Positions 30,794 through 40,737 of a DNA stretch of 64,000 nucleotides are shown here, one piece after another. The stretch is taken from the sequence record PZ445523.1; one strand, written 5' to 3'. The DNA comes from a phage. The stretch's first letter is position 1. The number at the start of each line of letters is the position of its first letter. The notes under the pieces were generated by a model, which saw nothing but the letters and a program-made list of their open reading frames with translations, did no database searches and was not told where the DNA came from. The position numbers were made by a program, and so were the translations under genes.

Positions 30794-31267
30794 TTATTTG
30801 AATGATTTAACGTACTGAATAGAACCTTTACTATTCACAAAGGCAATTTTACCATTTTTGTTATACATGGTAGCAGTACGCTGATAGCCATAAGTTTGTT
30901 TACCAGATTGATAACCAACTAATGCAAAATTATCTTCGCCCATTTTATTCTGCTTAGCGCGGATACGTTCATGACCGTGCGCCATAAGAACCTTAGCGTC
31001 GCCAGTTGCAATGGATCTACGAGTTTTTTCATCTTCAACTGTATTAACAAAGTCGTCAAATGAATCAAATTTAGCATGAGATTTATTATACAGTTTTCCA
31101 TCTACTGCATAATTATATCCCTGTACATCCATCTCAACTTCTGTACCATCATCCAATACAGCAGTGATTTTTTGACCTTTTTTAAATTTCAAAAGATCAG
31201 TAAAAGATTCAGCAATAATTTGAGAATTAATAGCTGCTTCAGTAATAAATTCTTGATATGTTTTCAT
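30794..31267 (-). CDS. Internal-protein-like capsid-targeted protein (157 aa)
   Basis: N-terminal capsid-targeting leader MKTYQEFITE followed by AA, as in T4 IPI/IPII/IPIII; payload unrecognised. Confidence 0.6.
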   Translation of the reverse strand: MKTYQEFITEAAINSQIIAESFTDLLKFKKGQKITAVLDDGTEVEMDVQGYNYAVDGKLYNKSHAKFDSFDDFVNTVEDEKTRRSIATGDAKVLMAHGHERIRAKQNKMGEDNFALVGYQSGKQTYGYQRTATMYNKNGKIAFVNSKGSIQYVKSFK

Positions 31268-31276
31268 ATGTTTCCT

Positions 31277-31693
31277 TTAAATGTAAATATTTTTACCGTA
31301 ATACTTGTACCAATGTGGTTTCATTAAAATTTTTTCATCAAGTCGTTGTTGACTCAATTTAATAGCTGATTTGCATGGATTATAATCATTTTTCCATTCT
31401 ACTGGAATATCGCTGATGTCAGGAACTTCAGTATCTTTTATACTGAACCCGCGTTTTAAGCATTCCGTTATAATGTCTGATTGACGCTTTCGCAAAAATT
31501 CTAACTTATCGTAAAAGAAAGTAACATGACCAGAACCTAAAATAAACTCGGAAGATATTTTAAAATCTTTAACCCGCTTACCATTTGCCACATGTTTACG
31601 AACTATACCAAAAACACGCGGCAATTCACGGTATTCTGCGATTAAATGTTGATCAGCAAGTTCAGATACTAAAGTCAAATTAATACGAGTCAT
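31277..31693 (-). CDS. denV: Endonuclease V (pyrimidine-dimer DNA glycosylase)
   Basis: 138 aa; about 75 percent identical to recalled T4 endo V ([17 protein letters not shown]..). Confidence 0.93.
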
Positions 31694-31716
31694 TTTATCC
31701 CTCCAAGTAACTGTGA

Positions 31717-31748
31717 ATATACTATCACAATTCTAGGAGAAAGTAAAC
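31717..31748 (-). promoter_or_regulatory. Early promoter upstream of denV
   Basis: Minus-strand GTTTAC, spacer, TAGTAT/TATATT, then GGAGGG and the denV ATG. Confidence 0.45.
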
Positions 31749-31752
31749 AACT

Positions 31753-32283
<531 letters not shown>

Positions 32284-35589: not shown

Positions 35590-35853
35590 TTATTTCATAT
35601 TATTGAAATATTCTTCTGCGATTTCGTCGTTATCATGGTAAACTTTAGAAGACAGTTTAACATAACCTTCTGCCGTGAACATGTTAATCACAACCTTTAC
35701 AGTATACCACTGACCATCTTCATTACCCATTACTGCGTAAGTTTCAAACATCGGATGATCAGGACCGATAACTTTAATATCATTCACTGTACGACCGAAA
35801 TCTTCTGAAACACATTTCATAAAGAAGTTGAACAGTTCGCCGTAATTATCCAT
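35590..35853 (-). CDS. Hypothetical protein (about 87 aa)
   Basis: Start reset to MDNYGELFNFF; upstream codons in the ORF track translate the promoter block. Confidence 0.5.
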   Translation of the reverse strand: MDNYGELFNFFMKCVSEDFGRTVNDIKVIGPDHPMFETYAVMGNEDGQWYTVKVVINMFTAEGYVKLSSKVYHDNDEIAEEYFNNMK

Positions 35854-35892: not shown

Positions 35893-35926
35893 TTGTATAG
35901 TACCATGGAAGGACAAGGATGTAAAC
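35893..35926 (-). promoter_or_regulatory. Early promoter with conserved downstream block
   Basis: Minus-strand A/T-rich upstream, GTTTACA, spacer, GGTACTATACAACTATCAAC. Confidence 0.5.
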
Positions 35927-36058
35927 AGTTTTGTGAAAAAATTTTTAAAAAGTTTTAGGGAATTCTAGGGTCAGGAGGGGCAATTAAAAGGTAGGATAAT
36001 ATATTATAAAGGGTATAAACTAAATGATGCCTAGAGAGGCCCGGAAAGGCCTAGATAC

Positions 36059-36090
36059 CAAAAAGCCCCAACCTTTCGGTCGGGGCTAAG
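36059..36090 (-). terminator. Terminator hairpin; copy 1 of a 32-nt perfect direct repeat
   Basis: Minus-strand CUUAGCCCCGACCGAAAGGUUGGGGCUUUUUG; identical copy at 36595..36626. Confidence 0.6.
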
Positions 36091-36094
36091 AATG

Positions 36095-36556
36095 TTATTT
36101 GATTTGTTTAGCAGACCAAATGCGGTCTTTAATAATTTTTTGGATGTCTTCAACATACTCTAGGTCATGAGCATGTGGATTATCTTTGAAACTATGAGCT
36201 CGCGCAAGTTTCTGGCCTTCGGTCTTAATTATCAAAAGTTCTTTAAGAATTGCTTCATATCTAGAGATAATTCCTTTAGCAATATTTTTTTCTTGTGCTG
36301 CTTTAGGGTCAGCCTTAGGAGCAGGTTTACCAGAAGGTTTTTCGAAAGCCGCACCAGTAGCAACCAGGCTTTTCCAGGCGGTGGTAACATAGTTACCCAC
36401 AAAGCCTTCAGCTCTCATATCGTCATAGAACTTGTACCGAGATTCGTCAGAAGCATCTTTATAAGAATATTTACCAGCTTTAATAGCAGCAGTTGCTACA
36501 GCGCGAACATCTGAAGCGGATGCTTCGGTCATTAAAAATTGAGCATAAGTTTTCAT
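36095..36556 (-). CDS. Internal-protein-like capsid-targeted protein (153 aa)
   Basis: N-terminal leader MKTYAQFLMTE followed by ASA; flanked on both sides by the identical 32-nt hairpin. Confidence 0.55.
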   Translation of the reverse strand: MKTYAQFLMTEASASDVRAVATAAIKAGKYSYKDASDESRYKFYDDMRAEGFVGNYVTTAWKSLVATGAAFEKPSGKPAPKADPKAAQEKNIAKGIISRYEAILKELLIIKTEGQKLARAHSFKDNPHAHDLEYVEDIQKIIKDRIWSAKQIK

Positions 36557-36594
36557 TGTTATTTCCTGTGTTAATTAACTCATCTATTTATATC

Positions 36595-36626
36595 AAAAAG
36601 CCCCAACCTTTCGGTCGGGGCTAAGC
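36595..36626 (-). terminator. Terminator hairpin; copy 2 of the 32-nt perfect direct repeat
   Basis: Same 32 nt as 36059..36090; lies downstream of the tRNA/stable-RNA transcription unit. Confidence 0.6.
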
Positions 36627-36639
36627 CTTGCGGCAACCT

Positions 36640-36936
36640 TGTCGGGGTTCCACCTGCTAAGGCAAGTGTTTGTACGAAACGCCGGGATTCGAACCCGGTT
36701 ATTAAGCAGTTGACGCTACTCAATATTTTTAAAAGGCCATATCTCGACCATATCCGAACGTTCCGTCAAAAACGCTACTCGACTTACGGCAAAGATATTT
36801 CCTCGAATCGATAATTCGGTGCGCCGTTTCTGCTGTGATGTAAGAGGGCATCAATAAACGCAAAGATTATTAACGCAATTCCTTACTCAGGGAACATCAG
36901 TCCGACGACTTACCGGTAGCGACCCGGCTTCTTGTC
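36640..36936 (-). ncRNA. Candidate small stable RNAs distal to tRNA-Arg (T4 rnaC/rnaD position)
   Basis: No ORF; tRNA-like T-arm GGTTCGAATCC on the minus strand near 36680; synteny with T4 species 1/2 RNAs; boundaries not determined. Confidence 0.35.
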
Positions 36937-37013
36937 TGGTCGAGGCAGAAGGATTCTAACCTTCAACCAACGGATTAGAAATCCGTTGCTCTATACAATT
37001 GAGCTATGCCCCG
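36937..37013 (-). tRNA. tRNA-Arg (anticodon UCU)
   Basis: Hand-folded cloverleaf: acceptor CGGGGCA/UGCCUCG, anticodon loop UUUCUAA, encoded CCA; immediately downstream of segB. Confidence 0.8.
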
Positions 37014-37016
37014 TAA

Positions 37017-37682
37017 TTAAAATTTCATTTTTCGACCTTTAAACCATCCTTCTGGAATTGGGTCAGTTTTCTTAATACGTTTAGAAACTTTTTCATCTAA
37101 TGAATGAATCCACATCATACCAAATTGGGAATTCTTTTCACCTTTCTGGTGATTATTTTTAGCGTGAATTTCTTTCATTTTATTAATAGTTTCAAGAGTA
37201 TGATGCTTATTTAAAAATCTGCTATTATTTAAAAATTTTTCTTTGTATTCAGGAGTTGACCATAAACGTTTAAATACATTTGAACCATTTTTACGATATT
37301 TTTCTTGAAGTAAAATATCATTTTCAAAACGTGACTTAAACGATTTAGCTCCTTTTAAGCTAGCATCTTTCTTCTGGTTTAGCATTCCAGGAATATTTAC
37401 ATGATCCCATCCGCCTTCACCGCCAAGTTTTAAATTATACACATCTGGTCTATTTAAAAACTCTTCTGTGACAATATTTTTCTCGGCTTCAAGCATAGAT
37501 TCTTTATCATCAAAATACTCTAATATTTCTTTAGAAAAATTTTCTATACCATATTTATCTTGGGCTCTTTTTAATAATTTACCAGAACCCATATATCCAT
37601 CATCTAAATTTTCGGTAGAATGCACACCAATATAAATTTTATTATTAATTTTATTTGTTATTTTATAAGTGTAATAGAACAT
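37017..37682 (-). CDS. segB: GIY-YIG homing endonuclease SegB
   Basis: 221 aa; GIY-YIG motifs (YTYKITN...IYIGVHS...YMGSG); sits inside the tRNA cluster as in T4. Confidence 0.85.
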   Translation of the reverse strand: MFYYTYKITNKINNKIYIGVHSTENLDDGYMGSGKLLKRAQDKYGIENFSKEILEYFDDKESMLEAEKNIVTEEFLNRPDVYNLKLGGEGGWDHVNIPGMLNQKKDASLKGAKSFKSRFENDILLQEKYRKNGSNVFKRLWSTPEYKEKFLNNSRFLNKHHTLETINKMKEIHAKNNHQKGEKNSQFGMMWIHSLDEKVSKRIKKTDPIPEGWFKGRKMKF

Positions 37683-39087: not shown

Positions 39088-39273
39088 TTATTCACCTTTA
39101 GAAATTTTATCCATAACGATAGCGATTAAACCAATTAAAAATGCTACTACAAGTGAAAACACATTTTCTGCTGTAGTCAGTAATCCGCATATAAATCCAA
39201 CAAACATTGAAAAACTAAAAGCGGAAGCAGAAATTGCAATAGCAACATTTCGAATTAATTCACAGCGTTTCAT
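39088..39273 (-). CDS. Small membrane protein (61 aa)
   Basis: Two hydrophobic helices; downstream of an early promoter. Confidence 0.5.
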   Translation of the reverse strand: MKRCELIRNVAIAISASAFSFSMFVGFICGLLTTAENVFSLVVAFLIGLIAIVMDKISKGE

Positions 39274-39300
39274 TTTATTCTCCTCAGTAGTTGATAGGGT

Positions 39301-39331
39301 AATAATATCACCACCCTATCTAAAAGTAAAC
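39301..39331 (-). promoter_or_regulatory. Early promoter
   Basis: Minus-strand GTTTAC, spacer, TATTAT-like -10; then GAGGAG and ATG. Confidence 0.45.
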
Positions 39332-39341
39332 GGTTTATAAA

Positions 39342-39650
39342 CTATTTTATTCCGCGTGATGCAATTGTGTTCTGTCGTTTAACGCCAGTTTGTTTAAAGT
39401 CATGATTGTCGATTTGATCGGTACGAGCAACTCCGAATGATGATTTGATCTTAGCTTTAGATCCTTTAGTTATAGAAATAAACATCTCGGAAGCCCCTTT
39501 CTTAAAGTCCGAGGCGATTACTTCAACGCCGTTCTTAGCAAGTGACTTCAGAATTGCCTCCGCATACTCATCGTCAAGACTCGCCTGAGTATTAATAACG
39601 AATGTCTTTGGTGCAGCAGCTTCATTGATAAATTCTTTAAATGTTTTCAT
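39342..39650 (-). CDS. Internal-protein-like capsid-targeted protein (102 aa)
   Basis: Leader MKTFKEFINE followed by AAA; own copy of the duplicated promoter/leader module. Confidence 0.6.
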   Translation of the reverse strand: MKTFKEFINEAAAPKTFVINTQASLDDEYAEAILKSLAKNGVEVIASDFKKGASEMFISITKGSKAKIKSSFGVARTDQIDNHDFKQTGVKRQNTIASRGIK

Positions 39651-39679
39651 TTTATTTTCCTAATTAATTTTGATAGGGT

Positions 39680-39711
39680 AATAGTATCACTACTAAAACC
39701 CTGTGTAAACA
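39680..39711 (-). promoter_or_regulatory. Early promoter (module copy A)
   Basis: Minus-strand GTTTACA, 17-nt spacer, TACTAT; near-identical to the copy at 40010..40041. Confidence 0.5.
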
Positions 39712-39722
39712 ACTTTGTGAAA

Positions 39723-39980
39723 TTATTTTAAATCTTCTAATCGTTTCTTCATCTTAGAACCGTTCTTAGCGATTTCGCCTGCATCAGAGCATAATGCTAA
39801 AAGCGCTTTAACTTTAGTTTGGTCTCCTTTAAAAGATGAAGGATCAACAGCAGCAGCAAGTTCTTTAATACGAGAGAAAAGACGCTCAGCTTCAGCTAAA
39901 GCCATTCCAAGCTTTACTTCCATACCATGAGAAGATTCAGTAATAGTAGTTTTTGTAGCAAACTCTTTGAAAGTTTTCAT
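39723..39980 (-). CDS. Internal-protein-like capsid-targeted protein (85 aa)
   Basis: Leader MKTFKEFATKTTITE; occupies the T4 ipI position next to 57B, but the payload differs from recalled IPI. Confidence 0.55.
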   Translation of the reverse strand: MKTFKEFATKTTITESSHGMEVKLGMALAEAERLFSRIKELAAAVDPSSFKGDQTKVKALLALCSDAGEIAKNGSKMKKRLEDLK

Positions 39981-40009
39981 TTTATTTTCCTAATTAATTT
40001 TGATGAGGT

Positions 40010-40041
40010 AATAGTATCACTACCTCATCAGTATGTAAACA
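40010..40041 (-). promoter_or_regulatory. Early promoter (module copy B)
   Basis: Same architecture and flanking sequence as 39680..39711. Confidence 0.5.
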
Positions 40042-40052
40042 ACTTTGTGAAA

Positions 40053-40737
<685 letters not shown>

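Follow-up and report, generated by a model that had tools for sequence, protein, structure and literature searches.

A duplicated terminator hairpin brackets ipA, a gene with an internal-protein-type leader beside the transfer RNA operon of a T4-like phage

We analyzed a stretch of 64,000 nucleotides (nt) of phage DNA (sequence record PZ445523.1; hereafter "the window"), focusing on a site where a small open reading frame (ORF), here called ipA, lies between two copies of a terminator-like hairpin. The window comes from a Tequatrovirus, i.e., a T4-like phage, and 753 phage records match the region. All genes at the site are on the minus strand. Along the direction of transcription, the order is seven transfer RNAs (tRNAs), segB, tRNA-Arg, the stable RNA genes rnaD and rnaC, the first hairpin copy, the motif TATAAATA, a ribosome-binding site, and ipA, after which come the second hairpin copy, a weaker stem-loop, an early-type promoter, and the gene e.8 (Table 1). 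The rnaD/rnaC pair is 98% identical to that of T4, and segB lies ~400 bp upstream of the hairpin site.

The hairpins coincide with a perfect direct repeat. Scanning the window, we found the 32-mer CAAAAAGCCCCAACCTTTCGGTCGGGGCTAAG (plus strand) exactly twice and no further copy even with three mismatches tolerated, while none of 100 dinucleotide-shuffled controls held a match to the 32-mer, again at up to three mismatches. The first-pass annotation, made from the letters of the window alone, had reported this exact repeat, but with its second copy placed one base off, at 36595-36626. With one mismatch allowed, the repeat extends to 36 nt (36055-36090 and 36590-36625; 35/36 positions identical, with 32/32 in the core). 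Read on the transcribed minus strand, either copy is CUUAGCCCCGACCGAAAGGUUGGGGCUUUUUG, which gives a 10-bp stem (seven of its pairs are G-C, one is G-U) capped by a GAAA loop and followed by U5. Folded together with its flanks as a 46-nt stretch, the upstream copy reaches -21.3 kcal/mol (z = -4.7); for the downstream copy plus the adjacent weaker hairpin (76 nt), the value is -31.4 kcal/mol (z = -4.2). These results agree with the strong hairpin and U tract described at first pass. A GC-rich stem-loop followed by a U tract at the 3′ end of a transcription unit is what defines an intrinsic (Rho-independent) terminator, and both copies have these properties, the upstream one lying 47 nt beyond the inferred 3′ end of rnaC. 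They were the only terminator-like sites on the minus strand between 33000 and 40500, and the GenBank records of the phages fPS-2, fPS-90, e11/2, and G8 annotate both copies as terminators. By their sequence, both hairpins thus resemble strong intrinsic terminators of the transcribed strand. An Rfam scan returned tRNAs only, with no family for the hairpin or for rnaC and rnaD.

Table 1. Features at the ipA site, with positions counted along the whole 64-kb window
Feature	Position	Strand	Remarks
Early-type promoter of e.8	35897..35925	-	TTTACA, 17-nt spacer, TACTAT, with TG
e.8 homologue	35590..35853	-	conserved downstream flank of the cassette site
Second, weaker stem-loop	36025..36060	-	just past the downstream terminator; without U-tract; in T4 kept beside the single hairpin
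Downstream 32-nt terminator repeat	36059..36090	-	stem 36064-36087; begins 4 nt past the ipA stop codon
ipA, 153-aa ORF	36095..36556	-	between both copies; phrog_2280, function unknown
Ribosome-binding site AGGAAA	36562..36567	-	5 nt ahead of ATG; read from sequence
Late promoter motif TATAAATA, T4-type	36585..36592	-	abuts the U-tract of the upstream hairpin; read from sequence
Upstream 32-nt terminator repeat	36594..36625	-	stem 36599-36622, GAAA loop, U5; identical to the single T4 hairpin downstream of rnaC
rnaC (stable species 1 RNA)	36673..36811	-	placed via alignment to the T4 annotation
rnaD (stable species 2 RNA)	36818..36935	-	placed via alignment to T4
tRNA-Arg (UCU)	36937..37013	-	final tRNA of the cluster
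segB, GIY-YIG homing endonuclease gene	37017..37682	-	within the tRNA cluster

The motif TATAAATA, the late-promoter motif of T4, has its first bases within the 36-nt extended repeat. It is found at the equivalent place in RB32, fPS-90, and Klebsiella phage Mineola, and is absent both after the downstream hairpin copy and in T4, where no gene occupies the site. In the GenBank record of fPS-90, a "predicted late promoter" adjoins the upstream terminator, and the ipA orthologue has an annotated terminator on either side; at the place equivalent to the e.8 early promoter, the records of fPS-2 and fPS-90 list a predicted early promoter.

Could the hairpin be a dispersed module with copies elsewhere, as the first-pass annotation left room for? 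We found it in 422 phage records at this locus only, in at most two places per genome, which points to a local duplication and not to a dispersed recombination module. The same 25-nt hairpin core, with a near-copy 17 nt on, was also seen at positions 1-80 of an unrelated 5.2-kb metagenomic viral contig (L008; IMG/VR 3300032282_001984), where its context is unrelated and for which the phage collection holds no relatives; the likeness may stem from convergence or from transfer. Two other origins of the repeat were rejected. An assembly artefact would not recur as the same structure in hundreds of independent genomes. As for a transposon-like target-site duplication, the 535-bp unit contains the 153-amino-acid (aa) ORF only and no enzyme gene (looking for a transposase or endonuclease inside the repeats, we found no Pfam, NCBIfam, or PHROG enzyme match to this ORF), and a functional hairpin of 32-36 bp is atypical as a target-site duplication.

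Comparison across phages revealed four states of the site. T4 has one hairpin copy between rnaC and e.8 and no ORF, and the same holds for T2, RB3, and PST. The junction in RB3 and PST reads ggcctagatacc[HP]aagccttgcggc (HP, hairpin). Its rnaC-side flank corresponds to that of the upstream copy and its e.8-side flank to that of the downstream copy, precisely what recombination between both copies would produce. Our census drew on the INPHARED collection (scans of IMG/VR yielded only 5 and 10 loci). A second gene, ipB, follows ipA in 128 records (A+B; fPS-90, ZN18, phiE142), counted as records covering at least 80% of an A-to-B junction query, and stands alone in ~37 (B-only; FL12, RB69), this being the remainder of 165 ipB records. 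Sites with ipA alone (A-only; this window, RB32, fPS-2, e11/2, G8) and empty sites (T4, T2, RB3, PST, ELT1, and T6 via a hairpin-only match) number ~265 and ~66 records, respectively, both figures being extrapolated from evenly spaced samples of 30-60 rows out of ~497 hairpin-bearing records. The B-only phage FL12 differs from the A+B phage fPS-90 by ipA plus one hairpin copy, so that the same repeat-bounded insertion/deletion (indel) of ipA is seen in two contexts. In RB32, the ipA orthologue at the same site (RB32ORF133c, record DQ904452; ~80% amino-acid identity) carries the GenBank note "flanked by 34 bp imperfect direct repeat"; its repeat copies differ at two positions, as compared to none in this window. 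Far from being universally conserved in T4-like phages, the segment between the repeats is present, absent (T4, T2, RB3, PST), or accompanied or replaced by another gene, with breakpoints inside the repeat, much as the cassette idea of the first-pass annotation had anticipated.

The second occupant, ipB, encodes 187-188 aa with the leader MKTYAEFLTE↓A (the arrow marks the putative cleavage position here and below) and occupies the site alone or in tandem with ipA, for example at 1807-2373 of locus L012, 2042-2605 of L013, and 2001-2563 of L027. It has its own terminator, with a different stem but the same GGGCTTTTTGGTATCTAGGCC tail at the end, and the ipB indel is bounded by a 9-10-nt GGGCTTTTT common to both terminators. 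Identity is 95-100% in 164 of the 165 records and 86% in the remaining one; the copy of RB69, a Mosigvirus, is 97% identical and frameshifted (ORF149c/148c). By contrast, e.8 next door retains only 80-87% identity in the more distant loci. This near-identity of ipB, including the RB69 copy, against the divergence of e.8 suggests a recent horizontal spread of ipB between genera. PHROGs places ipB in phrog_2280 like ipA, although BLASTP aligns the leader alone. Past ipA in Mosigvirus OLB35 (L014, 2960-3050), ~45 nt homologous to the upstream spacer of ipB (agtttgaatc...gctgttac) precede an unrelated 96-aa ORF; the stretch is apparently what is left of an ipB cassette that was lost or replaced.

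We consider it probable that the duplicated terminator of the tRNA/rnaD/rnaC operon brackets a self-contained 535-bp late-gene cassette and that recombination between the two copies deletes ipA. The sequences themselves show the polymorphism bounded by the repeat as well as the layout of the site, which runs from the first terminator through the late promoter, the ribosome-binding site, and the ORF to the second terminator and the early promoter. Judging from this layout, the upstream copy would stop early and middle transcription leaving the tRNA cluster, ipA would be transcribed from its own late promoter, with a timing that suits a protein entering the prohead, and the downstream copy would end the ipA transcript ahead of the early promoter of e.8, thereby insulating e.8. 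The product of ipA would be packaged through its leader. The two copies would recombine with each other: a non-crossover exchange would keep them alike, and a crossover or replication slippage would remove ipA together with one copy, leaving a single functional terminator as in T2, T4, RB3, and PST. Comparison and precedent point to general phage recombination or replication slippage across the 32-36-bp copies as the likely agent: T4 recombination can use homologies of <50 bp (Singer 1982, as cited in PMC2839356), and short-homology deletions, including the loss of ipIII, arise readily in T4 (bioRxiv 10.1101/2022.04.14.488369). The site would then act as a two-slot array, one slot for ipA and one for ipB with its own terminator. 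More speculatively, breaks made by SegB at the motif GGTTCGAATCC in rnaC could stimulate exchange or co-conversion of the site.

Alternatively, the hairpins might simply be two terminators kept similar by selection, without any role in the gain or loss of genes, and the indel might stem from unrelated illegitimate events. Both hairpins are indeed placed where a terminator is needed, and the Jiaodavirus homologue has a terminator on each side that serves the same purpose although the two are unrelated. However, the copies agree (32/32, 35/36) even in the loop and in the flanks outside the stem, where the structure makes no such demand, and in the empty sites of four phages as well as in the B-only site the breakpoints fall exactly inside the repeat. 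Furthermore, lineage-specific variants recur in both copies of the same genome, and one variant is found in the upstream copy of some genomes and in the downstream copy of another. We therefore hold this explanation to be highly improbable. The variants in question are a stem sequence that reads GACC in both copies in Tequatrovirus, TTCC in Dhakavirus, and AGGCCC in locus L025, and a structure-preserving GA-to-AG swap in the stem (G·U + A-U to A-U + G·U) that occurs in the downstream copy in RB32 and in the upstream copy in L009 and L018. The two copies thus bear signs of concerted evolution: copies within a genome are more alike than orthologous copies across lineages, and a variant can change copy, as gene conversion between the copies predicts. 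The payload itself appears mosaic. Compared with RB32, fPS-2, and e11/2, the window allele is 98-100% identical through rnaC and the upstream hairpin and 54-68% identical directly after it, and identity recovers in mid-gene in fPS-2 and ~40 nt ahead of the stop codon in RB32, a pattern that indicates exchange of the payload in pieces.

The direction of change can be read from more distant relatives. Homologues of ipA occupy the same position in Mosigvirus OLB35, Dhakavirus ABTNLsp5, and Jiaodavirus Mineola, in all three genera past the tRNA/rnaC block and ahead of e.8/e.6. The flanking structures vary: the two terminators around the Jiaodavirus homologue are unrelated to each other, the downstream hairpin copy is degenerate in Mosigvirus, and the hairpin-like copy of Dhakavirus lies past another, unrelated gene. 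Since the gene has the same position in three other genera of the Tevenvirinae, the presence of ipA is the parsimonious ancestral state, and the empty site of the T2/T4 type most likely represents a loss. The first-pass annotation had pictured a cassette inserted at a terminator; the repeat-bounded presence and absence agree with that picture, while the polarity points the other way, to a deletion in T4-type phages. Empty sites occur on two haplogroups of the downstream flank, each of which also holds filled alleles (haplogroup 1, T4 with the window, fPS-2, and RB32; haplogroup 2, RB3, PST, and T2 with an A-only metagenomic phage and FL12), and hence the loss was recurrent, or flanks and state were reshuffled.

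The opposite polarity, in which a circle made of ipA and one hairpin integrated into a single terminator by one crossover within 32-36 bp, would make T4 the original and the window a gain. The topology is symmetrical, as excision and integration give the same junctions, and for the PeSL cassettes of RB49 and phi1 minicircles and the reverse reaction have been proposed and circles detected (PMC2839356). The spread of ipB demonstrates that cassettes can arrive at this site, and the 5′ untranslated region and 5′ coding part of the window allele are 72-74% identical to the Mosigvirus/Dhakavirus type versus 54% to the RB32 type, which suggests a foreign import. Exchange during co-infection, however, needs only the long conserved flanks (rnaC, e.8) and not the hairpin, and the hairpin occurs nowhere else in these genomes, i.e., no alternative integration targets are seen. 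Together with the occurrence of ipA at the same position in three other genera, this makes a gain by integration unlikely in our view.

Another candidate driver of turnover is SegB. Breaks in the tRNA cluster, possibly also at the rnaC motif, might be repaired such that the ipA, ipB, or empty allele of the segB-bearing parent is co-converted, with the repeat being incidental. Besides the proximity of segB, this idea draws on the known SegB site core, GGTTCRANTCC, and on the near-complete exclusion of ~1250 bp of the T2L tRNA region in crosses (PMC2330249). A T-arm-like GGTTCGAATCC at 36685-36695 (minus strand) in rnaC, 60 nt from the hairpin, fits this core, which has five further matches in tRNA genes as compared to 0.1 expected by chance in the window; by its sequence, the rnaC motif is a candidate SegB site. 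The rnaC block is also 98-100% identical across genera, as expected after a sweep. Yet the state of the site does not track segB at the loci that we checked: the site is empty in T4 and PST, which have segB, and likewise in RB3 and T2, for which no segB is annotated, and the window combines segB with ipA. Moreover, co-conversion accounts for the spread of alleles but not for the repeat-bounded junctions. SegB as the main driver is accordingly a doubtful explanation, if somewhat less so than integration of a circle. Seen by itself, the stretch from the rnaD/rnaC block to the hairpin (36626-36935) shares 98-100% identity with Mosigvirus and Dhakavirus (L014, L016, L020), far more than the neighboring protein genes do, which may reflect strong constraint on these functionally uncharacterized stable RNAs or else sweeps driven by SegB homing.

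What kind of protein does ipA encode? Its leader, MKTYAQFLMTE↓A, agrees with the start of the T4 internal proteins (IPs) IPII and IPIII, MKTYQEFIAE↓A, at 6-8 of the first 10-11 positions. The leader pattern MK[TS][YF]xx[FL]...E picks out three ORFs in the window, namely ipA and two ORFs at the classical IP loci that match PHROGs named internal virion/head protein; a fourth leader-bearing ORF, in the ipI locus, has a variant leader outside the search pattern. BLASTP of ipA against T4 IPIII gave nothing significant, and against ipB it gave an alignment limited to the first 13 residues. A common leader on an unrelated body fits the description of internal proteins by Rao and Black, according to which they have only the leader in common (PMC3012670). 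Relative to the prohead-protease motif (L/I)-x-E↓A, the cleavage site F-L-M-T-E↓A of ipA has one extra residue, whereas the RB32-type allele offers FLNE↓A plus VLNE↓A, and ipB FLTE↓A. The alleles differ by a 4-residue leader indel (alignment A2, columns 9-12), with FLNE-AVLNE↓A in the 157-aa forms and FL-MTE↓A in the 153-aa form. The 157-aa leader contains two tandem (L)xE↓A motifs, and the indel suggests the duplication or loss of a protease site.

An AlphaFold2 model of ipA, built from a shallow 7-sequence alignment (predicted local distance difference test score 73), is all-helical with two domains: behind a disordered leader, a small helical domain modeled with confidence is connected through a Pro/Lys-rich linker to a long helical hairpin. 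Apart from members of its own family, Foldseek searches with this model in PDB and BFVD brought up only non-specific helical matches, and sequence searches of Pfam, NCBIfam, and PDB gave no match. In PHROGs, ipA falls into phrog_2280, with "unknown function" as the only label. A homologue search yielded 10 clusters, all from T4-like phages, and homologues are present in 512 phage records, one each, at ~60% to 100% identity. In the literature, including the fPS phage paper, we found no virion proteomics on ipA or ipB; a proteomics paper on Jiaodavirus was not mined to the level of single genes.

On the strength of the leader and the late promoter, we consider it fairly likely that ipA is an internal protein, one that would be packaged and injected like IPI-IPIII. 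The first-pass annotation had called it an internal-protein gene outright; the leader type supports this name, while the identity of the protein is our deduction, as every public database name that we found is "hypothetical protein". A less likely, though still credible, view is that ipA is an ordinary late or accessory gene whose product is not packaged, the likeness of its leader being superficial; the cassette behavior would be unaffected. The uninformative names, the phrog_2280 label, the lack of Pfam, NCBIfam, PDB, or fold matches, and the atypical cleavage motif LMTE↓A in the window allele all agree with this view, as does the published statement that IP genes are confined to two loci and absent elsewhere in T-even genomes (Arbiol et al., PMC2839356): the position of ipA between rnaC and e.8 corresponds to neither known IP locus (next to 57B; next to e/denV). 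It is harder to reconcile with the leader agreement, with the restriction of the leader pattern among window ORFs to the IP loci and ipA, with the predicted disorder of the leader ahead of a folded domain, and with the late promoter directly upstream. That internal proteins are known to have the leader alone in common, and that ipB at the same site has a better leader still, likewise speaks for an internal protein.

Several points weigh against a late-expressed, packaged cassette that is lost by recombination between hairpins. Termination, late transcription, packaging of ipA, and hairpin recombination are each read from comparison with other phages. The unrelated terminators of Jiaodavirus indicate that the duplication is younger than the gene, and the cassette model does not account for its origin. 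The sharp drop in identity at the upstream hairpin may mark where a constrained or swept block ends instead of a hairpin-specific crossover, because the rnaC block is ultra-conserved (98-100%) even between genera; for this reason, we did not accept the drop as proof of a crossover in the hairpin. Prohead-protease cleavage is less certain for the window allele than for the RB32-type FLNE↓A. The extrapolated counts of A-only and empty sites, finally, carry the uncertainty of their samples.

The closest known parallel is formed by the PeSL cassettes (Arbiol et al. 2010, PMC2839356; Comeau et al. 2014, PMC4122927). In these, as here, a small non-essential ORF lies between two GC-rich stem-loop terminator elements, recombination between the flanking copies has been proposed, and the cassette is transcriptionally insulated. 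ORFan192 of RB49 as compared to phi1 is a case of an ORF with two elements versus a single element, which matches the window and RB32 versus T4, T2, RB3, and PST; minicircles from the RB49/phi1 cassettes were found by inverse polymerase chain reaction (PMC2839356). The systems differ in that a PeSL element combines a sigma-70-like early promoter with the stem-loop, whereas here a terminator is combined with the late motif TATAAATA, at the upstream copy only, and in that PeSLs are dispersed through hyperplastic regions in many copies, whereas the present hairpin is confined to one locus with at most two copies per genome.

Arbiol et al. and Comeau et al. trace the idea of shuffling to work by Repoila et al. 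(1994, EMBO J 13:4181) on two IP loci (PMC2839356, PMC4122927). Like the present site, such hyperplastic loci, as described in these two papers, hold variable small ORFs that have only the N-terminal capsid-targeting leader in common and conserved regulatory borders, for which shuffling was proposed; their stem-loops are AT-rich and linked to early promoters, in contrast to the GC-rich intrinsic terminator and late promoter between rnaC and e.8. The RB32 record (DQ904452) noted the flanking repeat, without the terminator, the IP leader, or the comparison with the empty site of T4. Deletions in T4 provide a further precedent: GGGC/GCCC inverted repeats are reported at deletion ends (Mosig et al. 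1998, as cited in PMC2839356), and non-essential genes including ipIII are lost between short repeats (Mosig 1998; Srikant et al. 2022, bioRxiv 10.1101/2022.04.14.488369). Those laboratory deletions occur at homologies of 2-10 bp, while the present case is a natural polymorphism at a repeat of 32-36 bp. Integron cassettes, an analogy drawn by Arbiol et al., are likewise promoter-equipped or insulated single-gene units that are added and removed at a fixed site and form arrays; integrons use an integrase with attC/attI sites, neither of which is found here, and the general recombination and replication machinery of the phage is presumed to act instead.

The classical IP loci of the window lie elsewhere on the minus strand. 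The ipI locus (39255-40080) contains two IP genes in tandem, one at 39723-39980 (85 aa, MKTFKEFATKTTITE...) and one at 39342-39650 (102 aa). A 109-nt direct repeat (88% identity) stands before either gene and comprises an early promoter and a stem-loop as well as a ribosome-binding site and the first part of the leader; the trna.4-like ORF at 39088-39273 has a third, partial copy of the repeat in front of it. These repeats match the conserved regulatory elements of T-even IP loci (Repoila et al. 1994, as reported by Arbiol et al. 2010). The second IP locus (30794-32247) holds e (lysozyme, 31753-32247), denV (31277-31693), and a 157-aa IP (30794-31267; phrog_3155, "internal virion protein"). 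The order in T4 is e, ipIII, ipII, denV, and no ipII or ipIII homologue was seen in the window.

The cassette idea itself is not new: it matches the proposal credited to Repoila et al. (1994) by later authors and the PeSL model of Arbiol et al. (2010) and Comeau et al. (2014), and the repeat already stands in the RB32 record. In its mechanism, the site is one more example of an established model, which it leaves unchanged. What is modestly new is that the site, so far without such an annotation, is probably a third locus of the internal-protein type, whose two gene families are missing from T2, T4, and T6. As a tentative broader proposal, which we hold to be somewhat less likely than not, a third IP locus would reside at the terminator of the tRNA operon, where ipA (~500 genomes) and ipB (165), both of them hypothetical proteins by annotation, would be late, probably injected proteins and candidates for anti-defense functions, and where turnover would proceed via the duplicated terminator, possibly helped by SegB breaks in the neighboring, tRNA-like rnaC. 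If this is true, the loss from T2, T4, and T6 would explain why classical work missed ipA and ipB. The 32-bp repeat and the four allelic states offer a simple natural system for measuring repeat-mediated loss and gain of genes in T4-like phages. Internal proteins enter the cell together with the DNA. One of them, IPI*, is an inhibitor of the GmrSD restriction system (PMC3012670), and another, IPIII, seems to act against a so far unidentified defense in E. coli ECOR17 (bioRxiv 10.1101/2022.04.14.488369); ipA and ipB would add two concrete candidates for new anti-defense proteins.

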